Positions 1 to 45,867 of a stretch of DNA of 64,000 bases are shown piece by piece. The position numbers were made by a program, and so were the translations under genes. Below the pieces are notes generated by a model. That model ran no database searches and was not told the DNA's origin. It saw nothing but the letters and a program-made list of their open reading frames with translations. Source of the DNA: an uncultured virus (IMG/VR IMGVR_UViG_3300017747_004150). Lineage: Duplodnaviria; Heunggongvirae; Uroviricota; Caudoviricetes. The stretch's first letter is position 1. Each line of letters opens with the position of its first letter. Location: IMG/VR virus record IMGVR_UViG_3300017747_004150. The stretch is one strand, 5' to 3'.

Positions 1-3000
1 ATCTACTCTGCTTTGCCCCCTGCTGGCTTGCTGGGTTGTTTCTCTGGTTCCCCAATCAAACAAAAATCCATTGGCATACCTCAGATTGAAGTGTGCCTTA
101 AATGGTGTGGCTGAAAGAAAAACAACTTTGGTGTTTTCTGCTGCCCTCTTTGCTCTTTCCTCAAGAGCGGGAAGGGCTTCTTTTTTCTTAGCTTCTACAT
201 CTATCAAGGTTTTTTCCAGCTTTTTCTGCTCTTCATCAAGTTGAGCATACTTCATATCCGTTGTGTCGTCAAGATTTTTGATTTTATCAATGGATCGAAT
301 TTCTTCGTTTAATGCCTTTGCTTTAATCCACAATGGATGCCGGGACGTTATTCTGGATAGTGCTGTGCTTGCGTTTTTATTTGAAAACTCATAGTGAGCA
401 CTTGTGGTGGAAGATGTTTCACCAGCCTTACTTTCCATAAGCCGGTGTGCCTCATCATACACGACCAAATCAAAATCTCTTTTTGCAAGTTCATCGTTTG
501 CCCGGAAGTTGGCATAGGTAGTAATGACCACTCCTTTGCCGCCTGTTTTTGTGTCAGAAAGTGGAGTTATGTTTAACCCAAGTGCTTTACCATCTTCTGC
601 CCAATCGGTTACTTTTGGTTGTGATGGAACCACAATCAAAATATTGTCTTTCCCCTCTTTGACGAATCGCTTAATAATTCCAAGCCCGGTAAAGGTTTTG
701 CCGGTACCCGTTCCATTGGTGAACAGCATTCCCTTACCCATCCCTCTTTCCGGTGTTTTGTGCTCTGGATCAAAAAATCTTTGTTCGGCTTTAAGCACAT
801 CCTCCTGCTGCTCTGGAAGGAGATATGGTAGTGTTGCCCGAATGTTTGCCAGGTCGCCTCGTTTGACCGGGATGCCCTCTGCTTTTTTCTGCTCAACCAG
901 TTTTAGCTTTTGCTTGTCTGCAAAGCTGCCTGATACTTGTTGAGTTGATTCATCAAAGTCTTTACCTCCATTGGCGTCAGTGCCGGTATTTCCCTTTGTG
1001 CCATCAACGCTGTTTCCTCTGCCGTCAAAAGTTCCGGCATTTGAGCCCTCATTCCTGGGTCCGGATTCTGATTCAGAAAGCTGCTGATTGCCTTGTTCTC
1101 CAATAGCAGGGGTAAAAATATTGAGACTGCTCTCCCGACTCTCGGACTGCTGGTTCTCTGTGTTACCTCCTCCCTGAGATCCATTTCCATTTTTTCCGCT
1201 TCCTGTTCGTTGGCCTTGAACATTTTCTTCATTAGCGGATGAAGTATTTTCTGCGACATTGCTATTGCGTTCGCCGTTTCCTGATCGATCAGATACATCT
1301 TCTTCTTGTTTTTGTAATTGAAACTTTCGTACTGTTTTGACGTCATCCATTTCATCAAGAACATTGTCCTCAACGCTTCGCATGTTTGACAGGTATGCTT
1401 CTTTGATTGCGTTTAACATCTGGTCGGAAAGCGTGCCCAGCCGATACTCAACGTCTGCCGCAATGTCCTCCAGCTTATACACTCCCTTTTGAATGTACTT
1501 GGCAACCGTTTTGGCAACCGCTGCAATGATGGCTGGATCTGCTGGATTTGAAAATGCTTTGCCGCCAATCAATTTATCTAGGTCGGCCCAATCTTTATCC
1601 AGTTCAGCATTCAGGTTTTTAAGCTTGTCTTTTACATCTGCTTTTCTGCGATCGCGCTTTTCGCCGCGGGACTCTTTCTCAGATGCTTCTGCTTTGTTTA
1701 AGCCCAACTCTTTCCTTAATGCCGCCTCTTGTTCTGGAGTCAAATTTTTTAATTTGTCCGCCAAGTTTTGTGCTTTGTTGTTCAGCAGCTTGTCCAACTC
1801 TTTTTGATCTCGATTGACATCAGCTTTTTCTGCCGCAATGTCCTCTTTATATCGATCAACTAATGAATCGTGTTCGTCTTGAACATCTTGCAATTCTCCT
1901 TTTAGATCTTCAATCTTTTGTTGCCTTTCTTCTTTTGAAAGGTTTTTATTGTCCCGTGCTGCAGCCATCTCGGTTTTAATCCGATCCTTTTCAGCCTTTA
2001 GGTTTCCTTCCTCGGTTTTGATTTCGTCCTGGAGATCCTGAATCTTTGAATTTGAAGCAGCAATATTATCCTCAAGAACCTTCTTCCTTGAGTCTTCCTT
2101 TTTTTCAGTATCCAACTCCAGCTGAGAGGTCTTTTTACCTTTCAGTTTTTCCAGTTGGTTTTCAGCTTTCTCCAACTCCCGTTTTGCAAGTTCAACCGCT
2201 GTTTCGGCTTCTTTTACCTTCCGGGTTAAATCCGGATTGCCCCTTTCAGCAACAATCCCCAATGGAGTTGCCTCGCCAAGAGGGATGTTCATGGTTTGCC
2301 CCAAATTTGCTTTTGCAGAAGCCAGCTTTTTTTCTGCATCGGCAACCACCGACTTCGCTTTTTTAACAATGTCTTCAGCGGCTTTCTGCTCCGGGCTTAC
2401 TTCAGACTTTTCTTCTGATTTTTCTTTTGCTCCATCAGCCGGTTTGCTGCTTTGATTTTCAACATCTCCCTGGCCTTCTGTTCCTTTGTCAAATTCTGCT
2501 TTTGCATTTTCGTATTCTTTTTTTTCTGTTTCACTTAAAGACTCAAACCAATTATCCCAATCAGATGCCTCCTTTTCAATTTCTTCATCTGATAATTCCA
2601 TGTTATCGATTTCATCGTATTCTGCTTCCAGCTTCATTGCTTCTGAAATTGAAAAAGCACCTGCAGGAATCCCCTTGCCGGGCCCGACTGAAAAAGTAAG
2701 TTCGTCAAGATCCCATAATCGATTTGCTTCTTTAATTACGGCTTTGGCCGACTCCGTATCGGTTTTACCGGCACGTATATCGGCCAGCCCTTTTGTCATT
2801 GTAGCTCTATCAATCTGGACATTTGGACGTGGACTCCAAATGTCTCCATTCCAATCAAGATTCCCAGAATCAATCAGCTTTTTTGCTTTGGTAATCTGAT
2901 CGTCGGTCGCTACAATTTCTGGTTCCCGTCGTGTTGCAATTCGTCTGATCGGTTTATTATTCTGATCAAACACCTGGATCTTACCTTTACCCTTTCGGCC

Positions 3001-6000
3001 AACACTATACCCAAGCTTTGATGCTGCTTTGGTAATGATGGAAAGTGCATCTCCTTTGCGATTTGATGCCGCTGCATTGTAGTCCTGAACCTTGTTGAGA
3101 AGGGAGTTGTGTGCATCCTTATTCTCAGTTCCGGCGTTTTCTGCGACTATGGGTTTCTGTGTTTGCAGATCAGTGGGGGTAAACGCTATTTGAGAATTAT
3201 CAAAAACCGCAACATAGGTTTGGTCTTTAATGTCATTTTCATCTACGTTTTTAAAGACAATGCCATCGTAACCTCTTTTCTTTAACTCTTTTCTAAACTT
3301 TTCCGAATCTTCTTTTGTCGCTTTATATGACGGGACTCCGGTAATTTCCTGAAACAGTCCCATATACTCTTTTTCAAAATTATCCCATTCAATATTAAGC
3401 GGGTTTTTTACAGTTAAGTTAGCTGCATACACCTGGCCTTTTTTGGGTGGTTCGTTTAAATTTTCTAAATAACTAGAAAATTTATCCGCACTAACCGGGT
3501 CAGTTGTAAACCAAGTTGCAAACGAATCCGCTCCGCGATGTTTAACTTTTTCTCCAAAATTCGTAATTCCTTTTGTTGGAGATCCGTGATAAAAAGTAAT
3601 TGGATTGTTTTTGTCATCCATTAATACTCCCTGTTTTTTTTGCTGTGCAATCAGGTCGCTTATCGGCTTGTCGTACCTATCGTAAATTTCCTTCCGCTTC
3701 GCCTTGTCATTCATGTCGGGCATTGCATCGTACTCCGCTTGTTCTTTCGCTCGTAGGTCAGTTATCTGATCGGCTAGTGAAGCTGGGGTGGGAGCGGCTT
3801 GTTGTGTTGATTTGTACACATTCCCGTTGTAATCCTTTATGGTTGTCTGTGGGTACTTATCAGCCAATTCTTGTGCAAATGGCGTTAGCCCAACATTGAG
3901 AATGACCTCAATTTCGGATGGGTCAACTTTGCCTTTCGAACCACCATCTATACTATTAGAAGCAATAAAGAATTTGCCAGTTGTCCAAGGGCCACCACCT
4001 TTAGCACCTATCTCCCCAAACCATCCCTCCATTTTGCCAGTAGACAAAATATTGTTTAAAACGTCAAGCGACCCCTCTTCATTCAGCCTTGTAGACCCGT
4101 GACCATATTTTTTATCAGTAAGGCGGTCAAGGCCATTCATCGTAATGCCTCCGGTCATATCGTAAATAGGATTGCCATCCATATCCAGAATCTTGCCTTC
4201 GTTCAGCAACCTAAATTGCTTGCCTATTATTTTGCCGACCTCAGTTTGCGGGCTTGATACTACCTCGGTAGCCCCTTGCTGTGCTGGTGCGTCGTACTTA
4301 GCGTTAATCTCATCAACCTGATTTCTTTGAGCAGCTTCTATTGTGGGCAAAAAATCTGATCCAATTAAATTTAACAAATTTGCCCTATGATTCCCATCAT
4401 TTATGATAATGGTGTCGTCTGGCATTATGCTAATCTCTATTGGGTCTTTTTTTACATAGTCTTGTATTTTTTGAACTAAATCTGGATTATTTTTTATGTA
4501 ATCAATTAAAGGTTTAACCTTTTCTCCATTAAACAAATCTTCGGGAATTCCTAAATTTAAATTAGTATTTATAAAATTTACTAGGTCTTTCAATTGGGTT
4601 GAAGTAAACCCTTGTGTTCCTATTGACCCATTCGGTCTTCTAACCTCTTCTATGGGGACATTTCTTACAACACTATCAAGTTCTTGTTTTCGTCGTTTCT
4701 CAATCTCCTCTACCTCCGCTTGCTGAGTTTGCTCCACTTGTGGTAATGGAACGGGAGTGGATTGTGCTTCGCTAGTGGCAGCGGCCCCACCTTCAGTAGA
4801 TGCGGGAACCACTCCGGCATCAGTAACAACATTTTCTGATCCTGTTGGACTGACCGCTCCTGCGTCCACATTAGGGCTGCCAGTTCCTGCGTTAGTGTTG
4901 TCATTGGTTTGCGGGAATGTAATGGTTGGCGTTGTAATTACTCTGTTTCCATTGGAATCGGTGTAAGCATTTTTCTTAAAGTCTTCAGTAAATTCTGCAT
5001 TACTATTAAACTCTCCATTTTTCTTTTTCTGAATAATTTGAAGCGCACTTGGATTGTCCTCCCACTCCCCTGTTTCTTCATTTAATATTTGAGGGATTAA
5101 TTCAAATGTTTCAGACCCACGGCTTGAAACTATTTTCTTCCCTATAATAGTTCTGGTTTCGGCTCCTTCGTGCTGAATAATGGTTCCTTCCGGCAATGAA
5201 TCGAGAAACTCAAATGCTTCTTGGCCCGTTACCTTTTGCCCTCTTTCGTTGAAAAAACTAAGCCTTTCTTGTGCTGATTCTTGCGTTTGTTGCGAAGCTT
5301 GCTGTGCTGTATTTGTTTGTTGAGCAACCGGTGCGGCCGGCGGAAGAGCCATCAACTCATATGATCCGGCTTTTCCAATTGCATCTGCACTGGTCAGTTC
5401 AGTAATCGATCCGTCTTGCTCTTGAACCACAAATATCCGGTAGCCATCATCAAAGAATTTGATGGCATCACGCGGGCTTTCCATTTTAACGCCCTCATTT
5501 TCCATCCGGGAAACTTCTTCATCACCTTCGCTAAATGAACTGCCCCAGCCTTCTTTGTCTTCCACAATGTCTGCATCGTCGGCCATTGCCTCTCTTTGTG
5601 CATTAACCGTTTCCATGATCTTCTCACGGTTCAAGTCAAACATCAGTTTGTAACGCTGACCAAAAGATGCTGGATCTTTTCCGTCCAAAACATCTTCCAC
5701 CATCCCGGCAAACCTTTCTTCTGACAACTGCTGATTGTTGTTCATGAAGTCCCGCATCTCGTCATCCGATATCTCTACCTCTTCAGATACTGGCTGGTTA
5801 ACCGGAGCCACTGGTTCTGTCACCGGTGCAGCTTCTGGTTTCGGCGGAGGCGCCGTACTTGTTCCTCTAAGATTGATAGGATTTTCAACATCTGGAGTTG
5901 CGTTTGTCATACCTCGGTTGCCAAGGTGTTGCTCAAGTGTTTTAAGCGTTTGATCCCGAAACTCGCTCTCTGGTTGTTCTTGAACATGCAAGTATGCGTC

Positions 6001-7848
6001 TTGCAAAACACTGGTTGACGGTAGTTTGATTTTGCTTATCTCGGCATCAAACTGTGCAGCAATGTCGTTTGCTTTTGCTGGGCTCTTGGCAATGGCTTCG
6101 ATCTTTTGCCTTTGCAAATCATTCCTGGCATCCAATGCTGATGCAATTACTACCGCATTAAACCCTTTGTCTCCAGCAGCTTTTTCTCCGGCACCACCTC
6201 TTGCCGTTAGCCGTATATAAGCATCAACCGGATTCTTTGCGGTTCTTACAATTTTGCCGGCGGCAATAAGTCCGCCAGCGCCAACAAAACCACCAACAAA
6301 ACTTTCCGCCAGCCTTTTTTGACCTTCATCTGATGTCACTGCTTCTGGAAGTTTTTCCACAAATCTTTCGACAGATCCCGATCCCGAAGCCTGTTCGCTG
6401 GCCATAGCTGTAAGTTCTTGTGCCGTTTCAATTGCACCTTCATGAGCGCCTTTTGCGGTAAGTCCTGTTACGGTGCCTATAAATCTACTCCATGCTTTAT
6501 TTCCTGTTTGCTTTATAACCCAATCCCGGACGGCCCTGTATCCGCCCTTTGACGCAATAGTGTTTCCTACGACCTTGGATCCAAACTTCTCCAGAACCGC
6601 CTGTATTCCTGCTGAAACAATAGGAATAAATTCTGCGTCATCACCAGCTTCAATTACCTGCTCTGGAGTTCTGTTTGTTTCTTTTGCTTTTTCTTTTACT
6701 CCATTTACATACCCATCTGCCAAAGTCTGAGCAAACATTGAGTATCCGCCAGTAAATGCAGCCGGTAGCATTGATGTTACTGCCTGACCAATACTGTACA
6801 GTGTTGCTTCCGGAAGTCGTTTGTATTCGCCGCTTTTAAACGCATCGATAAGACTTGTCTGAATGTTGTATTCTTTTAGATCGTTTTGGAACTTTTTATT
6901 GATCACCTCAAGTTCAGCACCAATTCTTTTTTTGACTTTTTGCTCGTTTTCTTCTGCTGCTTTTTTTCTGTCGCCAAAAGAAAACAGTGTTCGTTGTTTT
7001 GCCCCCAGGTATGCTTCGCCTAGTAAAATTTGATCATACGCATTGTTGGCTAATTTTCCGATGGCAGCAGGTAGGTCGGAAAACAACATTTTGTACCAAG
7101 GTCGATCTTCGTCTCTTTTTTGTTGGGCGCTTTGGTAAGCTAAACCTTGCTTTTCTTTTGGAATACCGGTTACCAAATCTCGCATTGCTTGATTTAATCC
7201 AGTTCCCTTATCCGACATCATTACCCCGGTCGACTGATACTGTCCGGTTGGATCTTCATTGACATTTCTTCCCTTGTCCTCAAATTCTTCTCCACCGGCT
7301 GTCATACCTTGAGGCATGTAAAATGGCTTGCCGTTTACCATTTCAGCTTTAAACTCTCCGGTCTGCGGCTCTCCGGTGAGTTCAATTCGTTGTGGGCCGG
7401 CATCTGCTTTTGGCGCCGGAACCTGTCCGCGTGTTTTCTCCTGTATGGCATCAAGAACAGTTTTGCGTTTGCCAAACTGATTGAATACACTTGGCTGTCC
7501 GAATTCTGGTCCTGTTGCCGCTGGGGTATCTGTTACTACTGGCTGCGGCTCTTCTTTTTGAACAGCTGCTTGTGGAATAGACTCTCCAGTCAAAAAGGTT
7601 TTTTGAAAAGTTTCAACATCATCCGGAAGCCCATCAACCATTTCAGATGCTCGTAGTTCAAATAAAACTCCGCTGGCTTGCGTCCTTCCGCGGCCAACAT
7701 ACTCTTTTAACTTTTCAGGAGTCCAAGATCCATACCGATCTGGCTGATATTCTTTTAGAATACCAAGAAGTTTTGCTGGACGGTCGTTGCCAGGAGCCTT
7801 GTCTTGTGACAATTCCAGTTGTTCTGCTTCAGGTAGGAAATCTGCCAT
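1..7848 (-). CDS. Giant polyvalent/virion-ejected protein (>2616 aa, runs off the window start): membrane-like N-terminal region, ParB-like domain, two ADP-ribosyltransferase-like domains, SF2 helicase
   Basis: Manually read frame from ATG at 7848 has no stop down to base 1. Motifs: GMLFTNGTGTGKT (Walker A, ~690-740), VVYDEAH (~445-465), VVFLSATPF (~100-126), FYHGSP...WFTT...KNPL...GYDGIVF...VFDNSQI (3185-3625), IINDGNHR (~4384-4407), EGAIETAQE and FVGGFVGAGG (6250-6450). Confidence 0.92.
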   Translation of the reverse strand, partial: MADFLPEAEQLELSQDKAPGNDRPAKLLGILKEYQPDRYGSWTPEKLKEYVGRGRTQASGVLFELRASEMVDGLPDDVETFQKTFLTGESIPQAAVQKEEPQPVVTDTPAATGPEFGQPSVFNQFGKRKTVLDAIQEKTRGQVPAPKADAGPQRIELTGEPQTGEFKAEMVNGKPFYMPQGMTAGGEEFEDKGRNVNEDPTGQYQSTGVMMSDKGTGLNQAMRDLVTGIPKEKQGLAYQSAQQKRDEDRPWYKMLFSDLPAAIGKLANNAYDQILLGEAYLGAKQRTLFSFGDRKKAAEENEQKVKKRIGAELEVINKKFQNDLKEYNIQTSLIDAFKSGEYKRLPEATLYSIGQAVTSMLPAAFTGGYSMFAQTLADGYVNGVKEKAKETNRTPEQVIEAGDDAEFIPIVSAGIQAVLEKFGSKVVGNTIASKGGYRAVRDWVIKQTGNKAWSRFIGTVTGLTAKGAHEGAIETAQELTAMASEQASGSGSVERFVEKLPEAVTSDEGQKRLAESFVGGFVGAGGLIAAGKIVRTAKNPVDAYIRLTARGGAGEKAAGDKGFNAVVIASALDARNDLQRQKIEAIAKSPAKANDIAAQFDAEISKIKLPSTSVLQDAYLHVQEQPESEFRDQTLKTLEQHLGNRGMTNATPDVENPINLRGTSTAPPPKPEAAPVTEPVAPVNQPVSEEVEISDDEMRDFMNNNQQLSEERFAGMVEDVLDGKDPASFGQRYKLMFDLNREKIMETVNAQREAMADDADIVEDKEGWGSSFSEGDEEVSRMENEGVKMESPRDAIKFFDDGYRIFVVQEQDGSITELTSADAIGKAGSYELMALPPAAPVAQQTNTAQQASQQTQESAQERLSFFNERGQKVTGQEAFEFLDSLPEGTIIQHEGAETRTIIGKKIVSSRGSETFELIPQILNEETGEWEDNPSALQIIQKKKNGEFNSNAEFTEDFKKNAYTDSNGNRVITTPTITFPQTNDNTNAGTGSPNVDAGAVSPTGSENVVTDAGVVPASTEGGAAATSEAQSTPVPLPQVEQTQQAEVEEIEKRRKQELDSVVRNVPIEEVRRPNGSIGTQGFTSTQLKDLVNFINTNLNLGIPEDLFNGEKVKPLIDYIKNNPDLVQKIQDYVKKDPIEISIMPDDTIIINDGNHRANLLNLIGSDFLPTIEAAQRNQVDEINAKYDAPAQQGATEVVSSPQTEVGKIIGKQFRLLNEGKILDMDGNPIYDMTGGITMNGLDRLTDKKYGHGSTRLNEEGSLDVLNNILSTGKMEGWFGEIGAKGGGPWTTGKFFIASNSIDGGSKGKVDPSEIEVILNVGLTPFAQELADKYPQTTIKDYNGNVYKSTQQAAPTPASLADQITDLRAKEQAEYDAMPDMNDKAKRKEIYDRYDKPISDLIAQQKKQGVLMDDKNNPITFYHGSPTKGITNFGEKVKHRGADSFATWFTTDPVSADKFSSYLENLNEPPKKGQVYAANLTVKNPLNIEWDNFEKEYMGLFQEITGVPSYKATKEDSEKFRKELKKRGYDGIVFKNVDENDIKDQTYVAVFDNSQIAFTPTDLQTQKPIVAENAGTENKDAHNSLLNKVQDYNAAASNRKGDALSIITKAASKLGYSVGRKGKGKIQVFDQNNKPIRRIATRREPEIVATDDQITKAKKLIDSGNLDWNGDIWSPRPNVQIDRATMTKGLADIRAGKTDTESAKAVIKEANRLWDLDELTFSVGPGKGIPAGAFSISEAMKLEAEYDEIDNMELSDEEIEKEASDWDNWFESLSETEKKEYENAKAEFDKGTEGQGDVENQSSKPADGAKEKSEEKSEVSPEQKAAEDIVKKAKSVVADAEKKLASAKANLGQTMNIPLGEATPLGIVAERGNPDLTRKVKEAETAVELAKRELEKAENQLEKLKGKKTSQLELDTEKKEDSRKKVLEDNIAASNSKIQDLQDEIKTEEGNLKAEKDRIKTEMAAARDNKNLSKEERQQKIEDLKGELQDVQDEHDSLVDRYKEDIAAEKADVNRDQKELDKLLNNKAQNLADKLKNLTPEQEAALRKELGLNKAEASEKESRGEKRDRRKADVKDKLKNLNAELDKDWADLDKLIGGKAFSNPADPAIIAAVAKTVAKYIQKGVYKLEDIAADVEYRLGTLSDQMLNAIKEAYLSNMRSVEDNVLDEMDDVKTVRKFQLQKQEEDVSDRSGNGERNSNVAENTSSANEENVQGQRTGSGKNGNGSQGGGNTENQQSESRESSLNIFTPAIGEQGNQQLSESESGPRNEGSNAGTFDGRGNSVDGTKGNTGTDANGGKDFDESTQQVSGSFADKQKLKLVEQKKAEGIPVKRGDLANIRATLPYLLPEQQEDVLKAEQRFFDPEHKTPERGMGKGMLFTNGTGTGKTFTGLGIIKRFVKEGKDNILIVVPSQPKVTDWAEDGKALGLNITPLSDTKTGGKGVVITTYANFRANDELAKRDFDLVVYDEAHRLMESKAGETSSTTSAHYEFSNKNASTALSRITSRHPLWIKAKALNEEIRSIDKIKNLDDTTDMKYAQLDEEQKKLEKTLIDVEAKKKEALPALEERAKRAAENTKVVFLSATPFKAHFNLRYANGFLFDWGTRETTQQASRGQSRVD
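903..1298 (-). CDS. Putative nested (overprinted) 131-aa gene in the +1 frame of the giant ORF
   Basis: ATG at 1298 follows an A-rich leader (AATTACAAAAACAAGAAGAAG-ATG). The product looks helical and globular, whereas the host frame here is a disordered G/S/N/E linker. Confidence 0.55.
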   Translation of the reverse strand: MYLIDQETANAIAMSQKILHPLMKKMFKANEQEAEKMEMDLREEVTQRTSSPRVGRAVSIFLPLLLENKAISSFLNQNPDPGMRAQMPELLTAEETALMAQREIPALTPMEVKTLMNQLNKYQAALQTSKS

Positions 7849-17350: not shown

Positions 17351-18247
17351 TTATTTGGAAAGTTTTAGTTGAAGTAAATTATTAAATCCTTTTTGGTCCC
17401 GGAAAAGACCGCCGTTTGGTGTTGCTGGTATTACGTTTGGTGCTTCCGGACAAACTTCCAGGATTCGCGACGATCCCAGCCCTTCCGCAATTGCAAAGCA
17501 GCTGGACTGATTTCCGATGAAAAGTTTTGAGCCCTGAATGATTTTTGCCGCCTCAAGAAAGTCGTTGGTTTTAACATATTCTGCACGCGGCACCGCCTTT
17601 TGAAATTCTTTGTATTCATCCCGGACGCCCAGGAATACAACCGGAACATCATGGTCCTGAAGACTAGTGTATTTTATGTTGTGATTATTATACCGGGCTG
17701 TCCTGTTTACTACCACATAATCCATCGGATCCATGTTTTTACCTGTTACCAACCATGGTTCACCAATACAGGCTTGCAGTTCCGGGTAGTACATCATCAC
17801 CCACTGACGAATGTCTCCATATGGCATTCCTAATTCTTTGCTGATTTCCGGCTCCCGGATCATATCGATATTGTATTGCACCTGATGGCAGTCCCAGATT
17901 TCAAATCGCTCAATGTAGTCCTGCATCTCTAAAAGAGGCTTACACAGATTGAACATGTACTCATTGAACATGACATTTCCAATTGGATGATCGGCACCCC
18001 AATAAGTGCATGGCTCGTTGAGCAGTTGATACACAACGGCTCTTTTCCCGGTTATGCGTGTTGCTTGGCGAATTGCCGGCAAAGAATAAATAAGATCGCC
18101 AGCGTTTGCAGAATGACGAAAAAACACGTTTTTGGACGATTCCTGCACTGGTTGAATCTTTTCTTTGCGTGGTTGGTGAAGTACGATCGGAGTGTACTTT
18201 TCACGTTTTGACTTTTGTTCTGAAAAATTCATATAATTTTGAATCAA
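17351..18247 (-). CDS. GT-B glycosyltransferase (GT9/heptosyltransferase-like)
   Basis: AGDLIYSLPA at the N-terminus; AAKIIQGSKLFIGNQSSCFAIAEGLG at the C-terminus. Confidence 0.8.
   Translation of the reverse strand: MIQNYMNFSEQKSKREKYTPIVLHQPRKEKIQPVQESSKNVFFRHSANAGDLIYSLPAIRQATRITGKRAVVYQLLNEPCTYWGADHPIGNVMFNEYMFNLCKPLLEMQDYIERFEIWDCHQVQYNIDMIREPEISKELGMPYGDIRQWVMMYYPELQACIGEPWLVTGKNMDPMDYVVVNRTARYNNHNIKYTSLQDHDVPVVFLGVRDEYKEFQKAVPRAEYVKTNDFLEAAKIIQGSKLFIGNQSSCFAIAEGLGSSRILEVCPEAPNVIPATPNGGLFRDQKGFNNLLQLKLSK
18234..18241 (+). promoter_or_regulatory. Bacteroidota sigma-A -7 box (TAATTTTG) for the 82-aa gene
   Basis: Matches TAnnTTTG about 30 nt upstream of ATG 18273. Confidence 0.6.
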
Positions 18248-18272
18248 CTTATCTACTTAATTTTTTACGATT

Positions 18273-18521
18273 ATGGCTTTAAAAGCAATTACGGGGATCT
18301 ACGGGATCGCCGCTCCTGGGGGTACGGTCGCTACCCCTCAGTCTGTAAACCTGTCTGCCTATGTTGAGGCCGGTAATGTCGCTGCTCTTGAGAAATTCAC
18401 CGGTTATGCCGGAGGATACAATTGTACTGACGGATGCCGCATTCTGTTGACCAACGTCCCTGGACGTGTTGGTTACATTACCAATCTTTCGGTTGCTTCG
18501 GTGGTTTCCGCTTTGGCTTAA
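18273..18521 (+). CDS. Small beta-rich protein (82 aa), possible capsid decoration protein
   Basis: Lone plus-strand ORF with its own promoter and terminator; Ala/Gly/Val/Thr-rich. Confidence 0.75.
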   Translation: MALKAITGIYGIAAPGGTVATPQSVNLSAYVEAGNVAALEKFTGYAGGYNCTDGCRILLTNVPGRVGYITNLSVASVVSALA

Positions 18522-18541
18522 TCGTATCATGTTGGTTTTTC

Positions 18542-18573
18542 AAAAAGCCCGGCTCAAAAGGTCGGGTTTTTTT
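18542..18573 (+). terminator. Rho-independent terminator (probably bidirectional)
   Basis: AAAAAGCCCGGC-TCAAAAG-GTCGGGTTTTTTT between convergent genes. Confidence 0.8.
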
Positions 18574-18582
18574 ATGTGATGG

Positions 18583-18882
18583 TTATGTGATAATCCCAGG
18601 TCGCTCAATCCCTTTTACAATTCCTTCCGGCTTTTTTGTGTGCATCGACTCAATTGCTTCTTCAACTTTAAGTCTCAATAAATCCAAATCAGATTCGGTC
18701 ACCTGCTGAACACAAAGCATTTCAAACACTGGATCCAGATGTCTTTCTGAAAGAGGGATCAACAAAACATGGTAGTCGGAAAGTTTGGTTTCAAAGTTCT
18801 CCAGTGTTTTGCCATAGTTAAACTCTTTGGTCCCATAGATGCTTTTCGGCATCCGAATGATTATGATTGGTTTTGCTTCCAT
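18583..18882 (-). CDS. Hypothetical protein
   Basis: Likely start MEAKPII at 18882, directly after the upstream stop. Confidence 0.65.
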   Translation of the reverse strand: MEAKPIIIIRMPKSIYGTKEFNYGKTLENFETKLSDYHVLLIPLSERHLDPVFEMLCVQQVTESDLDLLRLKVEEAIESMHTKKPEGIVKGIERPGIIT

Positions 18883-18886
18883 TGGC

Positions 18887-19459
18887 TTACAATTTTTGTA
18901 TAACACATTCAATTTGATACTCTCCGATTGCGTGAGTTTCAACATCTGGCTTATGATGGCCCTCATCGCAAACTTTGGTCCAAAGAATAATGGCGTTTAT
19001 CCCAGACCTTTTGATCGCGTCCTCAACCGTGTGTTTTAGGCTGAAGGTATTTGGTGGCTCATATGAATCTGGCAACCACATGGTCCGATGATCAAGATTC
19101 CATCGAGAAGGAAGCTTGTTGCTGTCTTCATACAGTTCCCGGTGCGGAACAAATATTGCTACAATACCGCGTGGTTTGCAGATACGAAGCATGTTTGCAA
19201 TAGCTGTCAATGGGTCATCCAAATGCTCCAGGCAATGCGAGGACCAAACAACCTCTTGGGAGTTGTCTGGGAATATTTCCAATGTTGTTGCATCGCAATC
19301 GTTTTTGTCGTGTTGGAAAAAGTGCGGGTTAATGGTATCGGCTCCGTCAGCTGTATCAAACCGACCAACGCCAATATCAATACCTGTTTTGCCTTCAATC
19401 CATTTTAAGTATAATCCCTCCCGGATCCACCTCTGTTTTGTTTTTCTGGTTTCGCCCAT
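18887..19459 (-). CDS. Class I SAM-dependent methyltransferase
   Basis: GIDIGVG, VVWSSHCLEHL and CKPRG motifs; start MGETRK coupled by TAATG. Confidence 0.85.
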   Translation of the reverse strand: MGETRKTKQRWIREGLYLKWIEGKTGIDIGVGRFDTADGADTINPHFFQHDKNDCDATTLEIFPDNSQEVVWSSHCLEHLDDPLTAIANMLRICKPRGIVAIFVPHRELYEDSNKLPSRWNLDHRTMWLPDSYEPPNTFSLKHTVEDAIKRSGINAIILWTKVCDEGHHKPDVETHAIGEYQIECVIQKL

Positions 19460-20097
19460 TACTTTGTGTGAATTAAAAAAATCCCAATACCATTCCACCA
19501 CCGAACACTGCCTTCGCCCTCTTCAAATATTTCCCAGGACTTTACAATTTCATACTGATCTTTTACTTCTTCCAATCCAGCAAACGTGCCCTCTTTTACA
19601 GCATGGAAATCCGGATGAGAGAAGTCGTCAACAACAAAAATGAACTGGTCTGCCATCATTGGGAAAAAGTGAGTGACTGCCCGTTTGTGGTCTTCGAAGC
19701 TGTGGCCACCATCAAAAAGAAACAAGTCTGGCCACAATGGAATCTCGTACTTTTCAATTGCAAAACAGTCTTTGTTTGCGTATGAATAGTAGTCAAGATG
19801 ATTGAGGCAGTTTTTTTCAAATTCATCTTTTACCAATCCATCCGGATTAAACTCTGAAAAATTGTCGCATGCAAAATGTTTTATTTCATTGCCAAAACAA
19901 GTGCTTATCAGCGACGCGCCTTTCCAGCTTCCAACCTCAAAATATCTTGTAGATAAATTTCCCAGGTTGTTGTACAGGTGCCTAACCTTGGGGCTGCTCA
20001 TGCCTTCCAAAGCCAGGATTTCCGGAGTCAATTTTGATTGCTCATTGTGAGCATTTGCTATTGCTTGCTCAATTTCGGCAATATGTAGTCGTACCAT
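19459..20097 (-). CDS. Class I SAM-dependent methyltransferase (Methyltransf_24-like)
   Basis: YFEVGSWKGAS, LFDGGHS and VVDD motifs. Confidence 0.85.
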   Translation of the reverse strand: MVRLHIAEIEQAIANAHNEQSKLTPEILALEGMSSPKVRHLYNNLGNLSTRYFEVGSWKGASLISTCFGNEIKHFACDNFSEFNPDGLVKDEFEKNCLNHLDYYSYANKDCFAIEKYEIPLWPDLFLFDGGHSFEDHKRAVTHFFPMMADQFIFVVDDFSHPDFHAVKEGTFAGLEEVKDQYEIVKSWEIFEEGEGSVRWWNGIGIFLIHTK

Positions 20098-21392
20098 ATT
20101 TTGTTTGGTTTTGAATTTTCACTTTGCTTAACGCATGATAGATACCGTGAATACAGTTCTGCAGAATTTGATAGGGCGTTTTCTAATTGAGAAAACATTT
20201 TGCCTTGGACCATCATTACAGCCCCGGCAACGGACCAGTCAATCATGCGGACTATATCCGTTTTCATTATTGCCAATAAAGAGTTGACCGGCGCTTCGGC
20301 GTCGCGAAAGCACTTCACTCCATATCCCGGCATCGATACCGTAATTTTTGCTTGCGATTGCAAATTGTACATTTCCTGCTGAGACAGCCTATTCCAGTGT
20401 CCTCTGTGGAACATCGCTACTTTTTTGCCTGGGATGTGCTCGATATCGGAAGGATCAGTACATATTCCCCACTCATAGACTTGTGCAAAGCTGATGACCG
20501 ACGAAACAAAACTCATTCGTTGAGGATGGCTTTGACCAAAAATAAACAGGATCTCGATCGGCCTGGCATTGTACTCTTGTTCCGTATCAATCGTATCCCA
20601 GACAATGTGATTCACCCAATCAATTGGATAAATGTTTTTGTCCGGGTATTTTTCACGAGTGGTTTTGTGAAGTTCACGTTTAAAGTATGCCACAACCCGC
20701 TTTGCCAAAAACATAGAGCGCATCCACTCCGACAAATATTCGTATGGAACCAAAAGTTCGTTTTCTCCAAATTGAGTTCCTTGAATTGTGTTAATACCAA
20801 AAATGTGATCGTACAAGTCATTCACCCACCAGCCAAGTTCGTTGTAATCGAAGAATGCGATTGGCTTTTTTGACCTGTCTATTCTAGCTGCAAGTTCAGT
20901 GTTTAGAAAGTATTCTTTGCTATGAAATACTGGCACAATGAAAATGATATCGCATTCATCCAAAGACACCTGATCAAAGAATTTTTCGTACTGCTCCAAG
21001 AAAAAATGGTTGCGGCCAATTATATCATGTCCGTCAAGTGTGGTTAAAAATACTTTCAGCATTGGTATTTCTGTAAATGAAGAAGCCCCTTGTTCCGGAA
21101 CGGTTACGACGCTCTGGAGAAGGGGCTCTATCGAGGTTTGACCCTCAATGTCGGTGCTTGTCGTAACCAAGCGTGGGGCAAATGTATTGGGATATTGGAT
21201 AACTCCAAAAAACATTAGCTTTTGAATTGCGTCTTTGTACCCAGCCCGTTTGATGCCCGGCTCTTTTGGGTGCTCAATCAAAAATGTTTCGTAGTCAATT
21301 TTGGCGCCTTCTGTCAACCATTTTTCAACCAAATCCATTTTAGGGATCAGTACATCTTTTGAAACCTTTTTGTTGTTACCAGATTTCCTCAT
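20058..21392 (-). CDS. Putative glycosyltransferase
   Basis: 444 aa; YFKRE, FIFGQSHPQR and TVSMPGYGVKCFRDAE resemble a GT-B/exostosin-like C-terminus; lies in the glyco-modification cluster. Confidence 0.6.
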   Translation of the reverse strand: MRKSGNNKKVSKDVLIPKMDLVEKWLTEGAKIDYETFLIEHPKEPGIKRAGYKDAIQKLMFFGVIQYPNTFAPRLVTTSTDIEGQTSIEPLLQSVVTVPEQGASSFTEIPMLKVFLTTLDGHDIIGRNHFFLEQYEKFFDQVSLDECDIIFIVPVFHSKEYFLNTELAARIDRSKKPIAFFDYNELGWWVNDLYDHIFGINTIQGTQFGENELLVPYEYLSEWMRSMFLAKRVVAYFKRELHKTTREKYPDKNIYPIDWVNHIVWDTIDTEQEYNARPIEILFIFGQSHPQRMSFVSSVISFAQVYEWGICTDPSDIEHIPGKKVAMFHRGHWNRLSQQEMYNLQSQAKITVSMPGYGVKCFRDAEAPVNSLLAIMKTDIVRMIDWSVAGAVMMVQGKMFSQLENALSNSAELYSRYLSCVKQSENSKPNKIWYDYILPKLSKQ

Positions 21393-23865: not shown

Positions 23866-24638
23866 GGTCTGCTTCTTGGATTTGGTGTTTGTGTATAGGT
23901 GCTCTTATCGTTTGATGGAAACAACGGAGTTAATTTTGGTGCAAAGAATCCATCATAGTTGTTTGACATGGCATCCTCGATAATCTGGGCTGCTACTTCT
24001 TTGTTGCCGGAAGAAAACCGATGTAGCTTCTTAATCATCATCTGAATGCTGTCATCATTTTTGTAAGGTTTTCCTTTGTCTTTTTTGTACTTCAACCACA
24101 TCTCTATTTGCTCTTGCAAACCCATGAAATTAAGCGGCTGTTTGTCCAAAATTTCTTTATTATTCTTTCTTACTTTCTCTTGTATATCTATATGTATATC
24201 TTGAGTATAAATTTTAGACTGTCCTAGTCTAAATTTTAGACTGTCACCGTCTAAATTTTGGACTGTCGTAGTATAAATTTTAGACGGTCCGTCTAACACT
24301 TCAAGTACCTTTTTTGAGATCATTTCCACGTCATTATTTTTGATGTAAATGCCAATTTCTTCTTGGCAAGAATCAAGGTCAAAAATGAACTGAGTTGGCT
24401 TAAGTCCGATGGCGGTACGTTCTAAAAATCCTTTTGTGATCAAAGTGTTGATCGCGTTAAAAACCGTTGCCCTGGAAAGATCCAGCCACTCTGCAATCCG
24501 ATCTTTTGACTTCACGCACTGATACCCATACTTTGGGTTTTGGCTCATTTGCTTTATGTCGCAAAGAACCGCCATTTCATTCAGGCTCAAACAAAGTGCC
24601 TTCCTGATAATGTGATTGGAAAGAGAAATTATGTCCAT
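23862..24638 (-). CDS. Phage replication initiator (HTH; lambda O-like arrangement)
   Basis: HTH IAEWLDLSRATVFNAINTLITKGFLE; internal iterons; C-terminal WLKYKK...AMSNNYDGFF; directly upstream of dnaB. Confidence 0.85.
   Translation of the reverse strand: MDIISLSNHIIRKALCLSLNEMAVLCDIKQMSQNPKYGYQCVKSKDRIAEWLDLSRATVFNAINTLITKGFLERTAIGLKPTQFIFDLDSCQEEIGIYIKNNDVEMISKKVLEVLDGPSKIYTTTVQNLDGDSLKFRLGQSKIYTQDIHIDIQEKVRKNNKEILDKQPLNFMGLQEQIEMWLKYKKDKGKPYKNDDSIQMMIKKLHRFSSGNKEVAAQIIEDAMSNNYDGFFAPKLTPLFPSNDKSTYTQTPNPRSRP
24205..24296. repeat. Four palindromic iterons with 22-bp period (likely replication origin)
   Basis: GT(A/C)TAAATTTT(A/G)GAC(T/G)GTC at 24205, 24227, 24249 and 24271, next to an AT-rich tract (~24150-24204). 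Confidence 0.85.
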
Positions 24639-24765
24639 GGTAAAAACGAAAAAGCCCGACGTCAGGAAGTAGGAGTTTCCATCAGTCAGGCTTTTAATGG
24701 TTTTGGTAAACCAGTTTCTTTTGATCGGCTCCTACCCCGATTGTCTATCGACAGGGGCAAATGTA
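24639..24765 (-). promoter_or_regulatory. Promoter (TACATTTG) and structured leader of the replication operon
   Basis: -7 box at 24758-24765; two hairpins with complementary loops GTAGGAG/CTCCTAC, the second ending in a U tract. Confidence 0.7.
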
Positions 24766-27885: not shown

Positions 27886-27926
27886 GTTTCAACACATTAC
27901 GTAAAACCAAAATACAAAAAAAGTAA

Positions 27927-28675: not shown

Positions 28676-29176
28676 TTACGCCGATAACAACCGCAGATTC
28701 ATTACATCAACTCCAGTAGAACTCAATTCGGCAATCAGACTATTGATCGCCCCAACGCCCTCCGTCTGCACACCGACCATGTCAAAGCACAACTTCCTGG
28801 TCGCAGCACGAGCACATTTCTGAGTCCCGGTTTCGTAGGCTTGCAGCAAATCCATTTCCATCTCCAGCAAATATTCCAAAACTCCCATCACATATGCCTT
28901 TGGCTCTTTGCCCTCTTTCAAATTAAAATCCACAGCCGGGACCATTGGCACATCCAGTTCAAAATTGAAGTTGTCAGCATACTCCTCCAAAAGAGTCCGG
29001 TGCTTCAATTCCTCCTTTGACTCCTGGCGAAAGAATTTTACAAACCCAGCCAGACCCATACGCAAAGAACATGTGGCTGCATAACGATACGCATTGGAAG
29101 CAAACAACTCGTCCTTTCCTCGGTCGTTAAGAAAATCCTCGTCAGATGAAAGCAGTTGAGATTCGTATTTTTTCAT
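28676..29176 (-). CDS. Ferritin-like protein
   Basis: ELFASNAY...GFVKFFRQESKEELKH ferroxidase-type helix motif and later QTE; TACATTTG -7 box at 29202-29209. Confidence 0.8.
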   Translation of the reverse strand: MKKYESQLLSSDEDFLNDRGKDELFASNAYRYAATCSLRMGLAGFVKFFRQESKEELKHRTLLEEYADNFNFELDVPMVPAVDFNLKEGKEPKAYVMGVLEYLLEMEMDLLQAYETGTQKCARAATRKLCFDMVGVQTEGVGAINSLIAELSSTGVDVMNLRLLSA

Positions 29177-29211
29177 GATATTAACTGGTTACTAGCCAAA
29201 GCAAATGTAAT

Positions 29212-29300
29212 AAAAAAAGCGACCTGGCAGTACCAAGTCGCTTTCACGGATGAAATATCAAGTGTATGAATTTGTAGAAACCGTTACAGTTCCCTGATCA
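29212..29300 (-). ncRNA. Candidate trans-acting antisense sRNA (~85 nt) complementary to early-gene start regions
   Basis: -7 box TAGATTTG (29306-29313); body contains UUCAUACACUUGAUA; ends in terminator AAAGCGACTTGG-TACTG-CCAGGTCGCTTTTTTT. Confidence 0.6.
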
Positions 29301-29310
29301 CAATACAAAT

Positions 29311-29594: not shown

Positions 29595-30602
29595 TTATTC
29601 ACAAATATTGTAAGCGCTCATGCATCTTGAATCTTCGTCCGCAATCTTCTCCTCAAAAATTACTCCCTGACGATCCAGTTCAGCAAAGTAATTATCCACG
29701 TCCTGCATAGTAATAATCCGGTCACCCTTATGCGATCGGGTATTTCCAACGCCTTTCTTCAGATAGTCCGGACGAAAAAACGTACTCTTCACTTCATTCT
29801 CCAACGCAATAATCTCCTTGATCCGTTCCGGAAAATGCTCACGTATCAGCTTAATTTCACCATGATTGCACAACACACACGGAAAACAACCCACCCTGGA
29901 AAACCCCAGGTAATACAACGGGTTTGGTTTTTGACCATTGGCCAGTATGTAATTCAACACTTCCGCCCCAGTCCAGGAAATTACCGGTCGCAAAATATCA
30001 TCTGCATATTGCTTTCTCCATTCCAGCACTTCCGCCTTCCGATACGTGTAAAACTTCTTGTCCTCTTTCCCTAATGCCAGACGTGCTTTTACTTGAGCCA
30101 TCTGAGCCCTTTCTGTATCACTCAACGCCCTCTTTGCCTCAATCGATTCCAATCTTGCCAATGTCATTGAATTGGATTTGTATGGCTCAAAGTAGTATTT
30201 GAAGAAAGTACACTCCCGGTTTGCACTGGCACGATCAAAACTCTCATCATTCCGAATCCCCTGAATAATAATCAGCGATTCCTTCTGATCAAGAATAAAA
30301 TCAACCATCGGCTTTGATTTTAACTCCTCCGTACAAAACCGGGCCATCCGACTTGGGAACCTTTTCTTTCTTTTAACCAGATCAACCATGCCATTTTCAT
30401 CCAGCTGACTTTTTGCATGCGTTACCTTCACGCCCATCTCACCGCAAACATCCGTGATGTGTTTGTAGGTAACCGGATTCTCCCAGCCCGTATCACAGAA
30501 CACAGCCTCGATCTTATTCAACGCCACACCCATTTCCTTCACAACCCAGATCAATGATGCCTGGCTGTCTTTGCCTCCACTAAACGCTACTACTATTTTC
30601 AT
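29595..30602 (-). CDS. PAPS reductase family protein
   Basis: FSGGKDS, CDTGWE, CTEELK, GIRNDES and SRVGCFPC. Confidence 0.9.
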   Translation of the reverse strand: MKIVVAFSGGKDSQASLIWVVKEMGVALNKIEAVFCDTGWENPVTYKHITDVCGEMGVKVTHAKSQLDENGMVDLVKRKKRFPSRMARFCTEELKSKPMVDFILDQKESLIIIQGIRNDESFDRASANRECTFFKYYFEPYKSNSMTLARLESIEAKRALSDTERAQMAQVKARLALGKEDKKFYTYRKAEVLEWRKQYADDILRPVISWTGAEVLNYILANGQKPNPLYYLGFSRVGCFPCVLCNHGEIKLIREHFPERIKEIIALENEVKSTFFRPDYLKKGVGNTRSHKGDRIITMQDVDNYFAELDRQGVIFEEKIADEDSRCMSAYNICE

Positions 30603-33490: not shown

Positions 33491-33502
33491 CAAAAAACCA
33501 AT

Positions 33503-33712
33503 ATGGCAAGTAAAGAGAAAGACAAAGCCCTGTTTGTGGCATTTTACTACTTTGAAGTAGGGCATCCAAACGCTACCCTTTGGCAGACGTTTGACGACGT
33601 TTACAAAATGGCTGAGGAATTTGTGGAAACCTACGACATAAACGACGGGTGGGAAGATAGATCCTTTGAGGACTATATGGTTGAATTCATTAAAGCCCGC
33701 GTCGATTACTAA
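33503..33712 (+). CDS. Small acidic early protein
   Basis: 69 aa; start region AAAAACCAATATG. Confidence 0.7.
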   Translation: MASKEKDKALFVAFYYFEVGHPNATLWQTFDDVYKMAEEFVETYDINDGWEDRSFEDYMVEFIKARVDY

Positions 33713-37216: not shown

Positions 37217-37384
37217 ATGAGGGGAAATCCAAGAAATAAAAATGGCCAGATACTTCAGGAAATGCTGAAGTCTGGCCATTGGTCTGGCAATGTTGGCAAG
37301 ATGACCGAAGGGAAAAAACTGGTAGCTGATACGCCAATATTTTCAGCACTGGAAGCAGAAAAACAATTATCAATTTTTAAGTAA
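37217..37384 (+). CDS. Small hypothetical protein
   Basis: Likely start MRGNPR at 37217. Confidence 0.55.
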   Translation: MRGNPRNKNGQILQEMLKSGHWSGNVGKMTEGKKLVADTPIFSALEAEKQLSIFK

Positions 37385-37391
37385 AACCAAT

Positions 37392-37670
37392 ATGTCAAAA
37401 TTCAAATTTAACATTCACAACGTGATGAAGGTCGCCGACCTTGATCCGGAATCTGTTTCTGCCGGACTGGTAAAACTGATCAAAGAAGAAGGTCTGGTTT
37501 ATGAAGATCATAAACTTAGAGAACACTTGTATGATGTCAATGACATCTTTGAAAAACTGGATTCGCAATACATTGAAAATGTATCTGACGAGGTGATAGA
37601 GGAGTTGCAGAGTCTGGTAAAGCTCCTGGGGAAAAAAGATTGTGCCTATATCCGTTTAGTTTTTGCATAA
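37392..37670 (+). CDS. Hypothetical early protein
   Basis: 92 aa; start region AAAACCAATATG. Confidence 0.7.
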   Translation: MSKFKFNIHNVMKVADLDPESVSAGLVKLIKEEGLVYEDHKLREHLYDVNDIFEKLDSQYIENVSDEVIEELQSLVKLLGKKDCAYIRLVFA

Positions 37671-40979: not shown

Positions 40980-42005
40980 ATGAGTACAGAAATTCAGAAA
41001 ATCAATGTAGACATTGACGCGGTAGCCGTCAAGTCTATTTATCTGGCCGCAGATGAGCGTGTCAGTAAGGCCAAAAAGCTTTGGGAGGATAAGTATTCTG
41101 TTATGGAATACACCGATGAATCTGGTGCCGCACTGGATACATACCAAGCAAAGATCAAAGTGGCTCAGAAGGAAATCAATGAGCAGCGATCACCGACCAC
41201 CCGGAGTCTGGCTCAGATCACAAAGGCATTCACCGATCTGGAAAATAGTTTGGATGCCATCGCCAAAAACGTGGATGAGAAGCGGAAGGATTACCGTCGA
41301 AAGGTTGCTGCCGAGCAGATGAAAAAACAGCAGGAAGCAGCAGCAGCAGCTGAAGCAACCCGCATCAAGGCTTTGTTCATTCCCAATGTCGAAGATGAAC
41401 TGGTGAACCTGAAGTATGACCTGAACGCCAGCTTCCTGAAGTCTGTGCAGGATGGAACATATCAGCCGGAAGAAAAACCATTCACTTTGTTTGGTCCGGC
41501 ATACGGCAATGTGTGCATCAAGGTCACCCGCAAAATCGGATGGACAGGCGAGAACAAAGAATTGGCCGATTTGATCCGTGACAAAAAGGATCAGTTGATA
41601 AAAGACTTTGATCGGGACGTCGCTGACTTCCGATCAAATGTTTTGAAGAACAAAGACAATGCGGAAGCATTGAAGAACATTGGCCGTGCTTTGGGTATTA
41701 CCTATCAGGAAGCCGCCGAGGCGATTGCCGAGCAGAAAGAGGAGGCTGAGATCCAAGCAGAGATCGAAGTCGCCCAGGCGGTCCAGATCGTGCAGGACAA
41801 TAGTCCGAAGATCCGGCAGGTAAAAGTCTGCAAGCCGAAGGACTACAAAGAAGCAATTGCTTTGTTCAACTACTATCTGGCGGTCGAAGCACCGTCGATG
41901 GATGATGTTCTCAAGATGATTTCCAAGGCCATGACGGTTGCCAACCGGATGGGTCTGAAGGGAGAAACGATTCAGGGAGTGACTTTTATTGATGATGTCA
42001 AATAA
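40980..42005 (+). CDS. Coiled-coil protein of the recombination module
   Basis: 341 aa helical; EQRSPTTR..., C-terminal IQGVTF. Confidence 0.7.
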   Translation: MSTEIQKINVDIDAVAVKSIYLAADERVSKAKKLWEDKYSVMEYTDESGAALDTYQAKIKVAQKEINEQRSPTTRSLAQITKAFTDLENSLDAIAKNVDEKRKDYRRKVAAEQMKKQQEAAAAAEATRIKALFIPNVEDELVNLKYDLNASFLKSVQDGTYQPEEKPFTLFGPAYGNVCIKVTRKIGWTGENKELADLIRDKKDQLIKDFDRDVADFRSNVLKNKDNAEALKNIGRALGITYQEAAEAIAEQKEEAEIQAEIEVAQAVQIVQDNSPKIRQVKVCKPKDYKEAIALFNYYLAVEAPSMDDVLKMISKAMTVANRMGLKGETIQGVTFIDDVK

Positions 42006-43127: not shown

Positions 43128-43132
43128 GGGAA

Positions 43133-43180
43133 TGCGGGGTACGGTTAGGCGTATCGGGTTCGAATCCTGGCCCCGCAGCA
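43133..43180 (+). ncRNA. 48-nt tRNA-like RNA lacking the anticodon arm
   Basis: Acceptor TGCGGGG/CCCCGCA (7 bp), small arm TACG-GTTAGG-CGTA, T-arm TCGGG-TTCGAAT-CCTGG, 3' GCA. Confidence 0.7.
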
Positions 43181-43191
43181 AATTTTGGGTT

Positions 43192-45781: not shown

Positions 45782-45864
45782 GGTCAGGTGGCTGAATCGG
45801 AATAAGGTTGCCTCCCGCTGATGACGGGATAGAGTATGTACAGGTTCGAATCCTGTCCTGACTG
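45782..45864 (+). tRNA. Degenerate tRNA, anticodon GAT (Ile-like)
   Basis: Acceptor GGTCAGG/CCTGACT, anticodon arm TCCCG-CTGATGA-CGGGA, T-arm ACAGG-TTCGAAT-CCTGT; D region and spacing irregular; no encoded CCA. Confidence 0.6.
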
Positions 45865-45867
45865 CAA

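Follow-up and report, generated by a model that had tools for sequence, protein, structure and literature searches.

A phage mRNA 3′ tail that mirrors three translation starts may shut down all three by RNA pairing

The locus and its genomic setting

The window analysed here is the whole 64,000-nt stretch of record IMGVR_UViG_3300017747_004150, which represents most of the genome of an uncultured freshwater phage of Bacteroidota. A scan of 62 window proteins identified a large terminase, DnaB, SSB, RusA and a RecT-like protein. No integrase was found among these 62 proteins; the record of the 82-aa protein described below lists a 71,678-base contig, about 8 kb of which lie outside the window. 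The terminase is 20-26% identical to terminases of Flavobacterium, Cellulophaga, Tenacibaculum and Maribacter phages, and TAnnTTTG elements precede transcription units in the window, in agreement with the Bacteroidetes -7 consensus as given in an excerpt of PMC6847099. Based on these terminase relatives and promoter elements, we infer that the host belongs to the Bacteroidota. The early arm appears to lie at 32-46 kb, where small genes on the plus strand follow one another behind a TAnnTTTG-type promoter; this timing is read from the gene layout.

The gene of interest (18273..18521, +) encodes a protein of 82 aa and is inverted relative to its neighbours. It belongs to a small family of seven members (81-88 aa), in which the six relatives share 43-95% identity and the MALK start and the length are kept. 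The family alignment yields a β-rich model at pLDDT 84, and a codon model scores the plus gene at +14.8 versus -4.0 for the opposite, minus-strand frame. Given the six conserved relatives, the model and the codon preference, the plus-strand gene is real; the same three observations rule out that it is a mere shadow of a minus-strand gene. Pfam, PHROG and NCBIfam returned no significant family for this protein or for the two target proteins introduced below, and fold searches with the 82-aa model returned nothing at E ≤ 0.001 or Z ≥ 5. The leads below significance were an FlbD-like viral protein (E 0.07) and RemA (Z 4.6, rmsd 2.5, 56 residues).

A Bacteroidota -7 promoter element, TAATTTTG, lies at 18234..18241 (+), 39 nt upstream of the ATG, and would place the transcript start near 18248. 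As the preliminary description had stated, the stop at 18521 is followed by a terminator: an intrinsic hairpin is predicted at 18542..18573 (+), with a folding energy of -16.4 kcal/mol on the plus strand versus -7.5 on the minus strand and a z-score of -2.54 (3 of 200 shuffles). A simple terminator scan did not list this hairpin. The predicted mRNA is thus monocistronic and about 326 nt long (~18248 to 18573). No TAnnTTTG promoter was found inside 18273-18521 (+), so a separate 3′ piece could arise only by processing.

The homologous locus was searched for in several collections. In IMG/VR, no homologous DNA was retrieved with the 82-aa protein, its alignment, an exact 25-nt UTR pattern, the terminase alone or the 293-aa neighbour, and the gene is present in none of the 12 IMG/VR relatives examined. 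Nor was a homologous locus found in JGI metagenomes, in GTDB genomes queried with the terminase alignment, or among GenBank phages queried with the 82-aa, 293-aa, both target and the probable capsid proteins. P0003 and a terminase homologue each list a longest contig of 14,165 bases, a hint of linkage and no more. Among the matches listed for two DNA sequencing runs, one contig spans 18281-18869 with no differences and no joints, which is uninformative on UTR variation or on a flipped form of the gene; no RNA run was among those listed for the locus.

The gene lies within a block of methyltransferase-like and unknown genes (17351-21392, −), which is missing between the same neighbours in the related phage G001.

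Complementarity of the UTR seed to two start regions

Between the stop and the terminator lies a 13-nt seed, CATGTTGGTTTTT (18528..18540, +), which the preliminary description had presented as antisense to two start regions. The letters are as claimed: the seed pairs over 13 bp with AAAAACCAATATG (33493..33505, +) at the start of a 69-aa ORF without family (33503-33712), and over 12 bp with AAAACCAATATG (37383..37394, +) at the start of a 92-aa ORF without a named family (37392-37670), with one G-U pair each and with both AUGs covered. The underlying motif, AAACCAA.ATG, has three copies in the window, namely the two target starts and the inverted copy in the UTR of the 82-aa gene. Among 86 starts of the window, only two pairs share an upstream-only run of at least 12 nt (33503/37392 and 37048/40677), and each of these pairs has an antisense copy ahead of a terminator.

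How unusual this match appears depends on the measure. For runs that are unbroken, cover the AUG and include at most one G-U pair, the thresholds, set post hoc, were lengths of at least 13 and at least 12 against 88 curated starts. Of 5000 approximate dinucleotide shuffles each, the 20-nt UTR gave 31 that reach these lengths, the 24-nt UTR 15 and the 52-nt UTR 8. As the window contains about a dozen comparable stretches ahead of terminators, the corrected chance of such a match is a few percent. Within the window, none of 891 CAT sites in sense-coding DNA and 10 of 1242 in antisense DNA reach the level of the seed, and by inspection five of these ten are echoes of a neighbouring true start. 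Matches of at least 13 occur once in all non-coding DNA, three times in sense-coding and 22 times in antisense-to-coding DNA, and the non-coding count is near chance.

By unrestricted duplex energy, on the other hand, the two targets rank third and sixth when the 24-nt UTR is compared with the 88 starts, its best partner being a gene on the minus strand at 20097. Of 300 dinucleotide shuffles, 63 equalled the best energy and 86 the second-best. Pairing of similar strength in composition-matched shuffles, named beforehand as an argument against the seed, is therefore common when strength means duplex energy and rare when it means run length (15-31 of 5000). In short, the match is ordinary by plain duplex energy and unusual as an AUG-covering run.

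Once the cost of opening the target is added, the two starts named at the outset are the best 2 of 88 for a 17-nt seed (37392 at -12.6 and 33503 at -12.4 kcal/mol), with energies close to those of the best targets of the 29.2-kb element described below (-13.5 to -11.8). The match is also specific to this phage: in 17 other Bacteroidota phages, the longest run at any of 1368 starts is 11, so none attains the 12 and 13 bp of the two home targets. Within those 17 phages, the idea of a start motif common to Bacteroidota in general can be rejected. The complementarity is real and fairly specific.

The 3′ UTR of a 111-aa gene (27886..27926, −) likewise has the 37392 start as its best target, through a looser complement with 10 bp perfect. 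This UTR ranks 9th of 15 in the own-versus-foreign test and is not specific against foreign starts.

The tail is also predicted to close over its own start

A second module, absent from the preliminary description, directly precedes the seed. When the whole predicted mRNA is folded, the start region of the gene itself (leader, AUG and first codons; 18266..18286, +) forms the 5′ arm of a 17-bp helix with the last codons, the stop and the first five UTR bases (18510..18526, +; 8 bp perfect), with pair probabilities of 0.86-1.0, which buries the gene's own start. The self duplex, at -16.8 kcal/mol, is the second of 87 self pairs, and among 7482 non-self start/end pairs 17 reach this energy. Closure is kept in 49 of 60 synonymous gene shuffles versus only 1 of 60 UTR shuffles.

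The seed starts one base past this helix and costs about 2 kcal/mol to open. In cofolding, the self helix stays intact while the seed binds either target (-12.7 and -12.4). Self-closing is not a general property of terminator-followed genes, as 4 of 92 such genes from 18 phages fall in the top 5%, versus 4.6 expected.

Analogous lone genes in relatives

Nine IMG/VR relatives carry a lone gene of 80-82 aa beside the terminase, rich in small residues (MALLK family; L033:6015-6310 in G002, with homologues in G004-G010 and G012). Homology between this family and that of the window's 82-aa protein was not detected (probability 0.2%), and the comparison is hence one of analogous layout. A single-sequence model of the MALLK protein was unusable (pLDDT 43).

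The layout is closely similar. TAnnTTTG lies 32-38 nt before the ATG in eight of the nine genes, and a hairpin follows the stop in all nine. The mRNA closes on its own start in seven of nine, with a probability of 0.66-0.82; the two genes without the start motif are also without the complement. Of the alignment cells of the 9-bp helix, 80% are paired, versus 18-36% when it is slid. One clear compensatory change, A-U to G-C in G009, supports it; only this one is counted, since a second two-sided change sits in an otherwise unpaired row. The CAU of these UTRs pairs with the AUG of the same gene and is found 10-23 nt past the stop, close to the position of the CAU in the window's seed. Towards other starts, nothing beyond 9 bp was found for the MALLK UTR elements, except for the start of a shadow ORF in G009, so this locus provides no precedent for a seed acting in trans. 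Pairing with the own start is the better-supported role for such a tail.

A possible class of terminator-proximal anti-start tails

Whether such tails are more widespread was assessed in 15 phages, namely the window, nine IMG/VR relatives and five GenBank records (the fragmentary G003, G008 and G010 were left out), using 100 non-coding stretches before predicted terminators. Starts of opposite-strand genes were excluded and set sizes were equalised. In two runs, 22 and 23 of the 100 stretches gave the top rank among the 15 to the starts of their own phage, versus 9 for reversed, 10 for complemented and 8 for sense controls (Fisher p 0.002 for antisense against the reversed and complemented controls); without the window, the counts are 21 versus 8 of 89. 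These numbers rely on crude gene and terminator calls made with our own script, false ones included, and on relatives that are not independent. A test anchored on the AUG gave only about a twofold difference (13 of 4243 own matches, the two of the window included, versus 93 of 56429 foreign ones). An earlier own-versus-foreign test with unequal set sizes (15 and 17 of 67, 6.7 expected) is superseded by these counts.

The preliminary description had argued for function at the RNA level from the fact that both of its motifs are antisense in their own direction of transcription. That argument holds for the class, in which antisense exceeds sense (23 versus 8 of 100), and does not carry for this locus alone. 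In the orthologous units of G002 and G012, a one-base insertion is mirrored in the orthologous early start.

The other antisense motif of the window lies in a promoter-to-terminator unit at 29211..29302 (−), the 29.2-kb element, and complements the remaining shared start motif, ATCAAGT. The core of the element pairs best with four ATCAAGT starts, and its third-best energy is reached by 1 of 300 shuffles. Behind the homologue of the upstream gene, G001 has an antisense tract that matches this phage's own, different motif over 14 of 14 positions. The 29.2-kb element is better supported than the tail of the 82-aa gene. IMG/VR also contains 24 matches to its 16-nt core, all lacking the context, which were dropped as chance.

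Strong complements of own starts (12-16 nt) close to terminators were seen in G011 (+32115), G005 (+65424), G004 (-25717) and W04 (-74755), a set that includes a cultured phage; in Tenacibaculum phage Gundel_1, they measure 14, 14 and 12 nt near 74755 (−). The window itself has a leader of about 110 nt (24653-24765, −), running from a TACATTTG promoter to the replication-initiator gene. It contains a terminator-like hairpin, and one of its tracts could pair with the starts at 40980, 38295 and 32333, to which it is complementary.

Proposed mechanism and alternative explanations

In sequence, the locus has a promoter of the host type, the gene, the two complementary tracts side by side and a terminator on the plus strand. 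We propose that the tail is a dual anti-start element that combines self-damping in cis with repression of two early genes in trans, probably as the whole mRNA, and we consider this proposal about equally apt to be right or wrong. The tract at 18510-18526 is predicted to fold back on the own leader and AUG, whereby the finished mRNA would damp its own translation. With this first tract folded onto the leader, the second (18528-18540) would be left between the self helix and the terminator, available for pairing in trans. The seed could then block initiation at two small, probably early genes by pairing with their AUG and the A-rich leader before it. As excerpted, PMC9976891 reports that Bacteroidota ribosomes use upstream adenines and not a Shine-Dalgarno sequence, which would make the A-rich leader and AUG the region to block. 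The proposal presumes that the RNA is made, that it acts either as the whole mRNA or as a cut 3′ piece, and that its effect is repression. The tail might thereby help to switch off early genes jointly with the 29.2-kb element, which would cover the other shared start motif.

For the idea, raised in the preliminary description, that the UTR is a second class of 3′-UTR-derived regulator, the phage-specific pairing and the top two ranks among 88 starts with opening cost speak in favour. The ordinary duplex energy speaks against, and the cis role has the better support.

In a more ambitious form of the proposal, the two arms would be a coupled switch: the full mRNA closes over its own start, the same helix presents a 13-nt toehold that silences two early genes, and the tail is one member of a set of anti-start tails that address groups of genes by private start motifs. 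The trans arm has only two targets in one genome, and we put this form forward tentatively, as rather improbable.

It is also possible, if on balance doubtful, that only the cis arm works, as self-damping of the icaR type. The 13-mer would then be a relic, either the complement of an own start that once had the form AAAAACCAAYAUG or what is left of an inversion between 8-bp repeats, or it would be due to chance. The UTR CAU of the MALLK genes, which targets their own AUG from nearly the position of the seed's CAU, would fit such a cis-only tail, and so would the unremarkable energies in the shuffles if the match were chance. The relic and chance versions both have to contend with the absence of any match among the 1368 foreign starts. 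A relic start, too, would seldom suit the 33503/37392 pair, as no real start among the 86 has upstream-only runs of (13, 12) against two others. An inversion would account for an 8-bp inverted repeat that flanks the gene exactly, the longest among 87 genes, and for the gene's orientation against its neighbours; however, neither the promoter and U-rich leader nor the plus-biased terminator is enclosed by the repeats, and all three fit the orientation that the gene has now.

Alternatively, the seed may be a true minus-strand start on a read-through message. Its CAT is the ATG of an in-register 83-codon shadow ORF (18279..18530, −), whose translation would keep the stretch of transcript that separates the 127-aa and 293-aa genes occupied by ribosomes. 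This ORF tiles a gap in a run of minus-strand genes and has an A at -3 and -6; the terminator hairpin is weak on that strand (-7.5 kcal/mol), and starts are often found behind a terminator in these phages. An open frame of 83 codons is expected in roughly 2-8% of cases, calculated as one in three for the register times 0.07-0.23 for codon use; open frames were seen in 14.5% of 80-codon windows and at 4 of 69 gene ends. The codon score (-4.0, versus +14.8 for the plus gene) argues against translation of the shadow frame, and a chance shadow of 74 codons also occurs at the analogous gene of G009, one of seven such genes with a UTR CAT. The minus frame has no PHROG, but neither has the plus frame. 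This explanation also leaves the self-closing arm unexplained, and we regard it as improbable.

Equally improbable is that the seed functions mainly against host mRNAs with similar A-rich starts, which would suit the pairing of Bacteroidota sRNAs near start codons (PMC11697453, excerpt) but not a match that is phage-specific among phage starts, or that a protein binds the motif as DNA. For such a protein site, the weak resemblance of the 82-aa model to DNA-binding RemA has a Z below 8 and is not significant, and a site of this kind would not require the strand specificity that the family signal shows.

Relation to known systems

The following comparisons refer to excerpts of the cited papers. 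In Staphylococcus aureus, the icaR mRNA folds its 3′ UTR onto the region of the same molecule where ribosomes land and so blocks initiation; the helix is a possible RNase III substrate (PMC3868564). The phage mRNA resembles it in that its 3′ end pairs, here in silico only, with its own ribosome-landing region. Whereas the excerpt describes a long 3′ UTR with an anti-Shine-Dalgarno motif, the phage UTR comprises 20 nt plus a terminator, its arm is partly coding, its target is a leader without Shine-Dalgarno sequence together with the AUG, and a second tract for other genes adjoins it.

The sRNAs FopS and GibS of Bacteroides thetaiotaomicron, a member of the same phylum, use short seeds near the start codons of several mRNAs to impede translation (PMC11697453). 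The predicted mode of pairing of the phage tail is alike. According to the excerpt, however, these are stand-alone host sRNAs acting on host genes, with FopS present in 14 copies, whereas the phage has a single tract within an mRNA and phage genes as predicted targets.

The C4 antisense RNA of phage P1 represses icd/ant in its own operon and keeps lysogeny (PMC8198154). Both cases involve a phage RNA that is antisense to the phage's own genes; unlike C4 as described there, the tail would act on targets 15-19 kb away, in a genome with no integrase among the scanned proteins. Rfam includes a C4 model, and this covariance model had no match in the window at the Rfam gathering score. To our knowledge, Bacteroidota are without Hfq. 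CisR of Vibrio cholerae, which needs Hfq, is a host-encoded, 3′-UTR-derived sRNA that represses a phage mRNA (PMC13250501); MalH is likewise host-encoded and 3′-UTR-derived (PMC8081044). As in these cases, the seed lies in an mRNA 3′ end upstream of a shared, here predicted, terminator, but CisR and MalH are, in the excerpts, host-encoded and demonstrated as separate RNAs, while the phage tail is known from sequence alone. PreS of phage lambda is described as targeting host genes (10.1101/2024.10.31.621285, excerpt).

By analogy, the tail would act like icaR in cis and like FopS/GibS or P1 C4 in trans, yet it lacks defining features of each. Among open-licence papers and bioRxiv preprints on phage antisense and 3′-UTR regulation, we found no such dual tail. 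If true, control of the own message and of other genes within 31 consecutive bases would join two known mechanisms. The shutoff of early genes has been little described in phages of Bacteroidota, hosts without Shine-Dalgarno initiation. Should the tails prove functional, private start motifs would be the addresses and mRNA 3′ ends the regulators. The locus would add a variant to its general class, of which it is not the first sighting, with a trans arm that is predicted from one genome.

Other features of the window

Several further features were noted. A ferritin-like gene with its own promoter directly follows the terminator of the 29.2-kb element, and a PAPS-reductase-like gene was also seen (28676-29176, − and 29595-30602, −). 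An open frame of more than 2600 codons (1-7848, −) runs off the window and has what we take to be helicase-like motifs near its far end. Within the replication-initiator gene lie four 22-nt tandem repeats (24205-24311), which presumably resemble the iterons of lambdoid origins. Scans with Rfam and ARAGORN found only a tRNA-Ile (45782-45865). The segment at 43130-43185 (+) resembles its 3′ half (repeat D11) and, with no call by either ARAGORN or Rfam, may be a degenerate tRNA.
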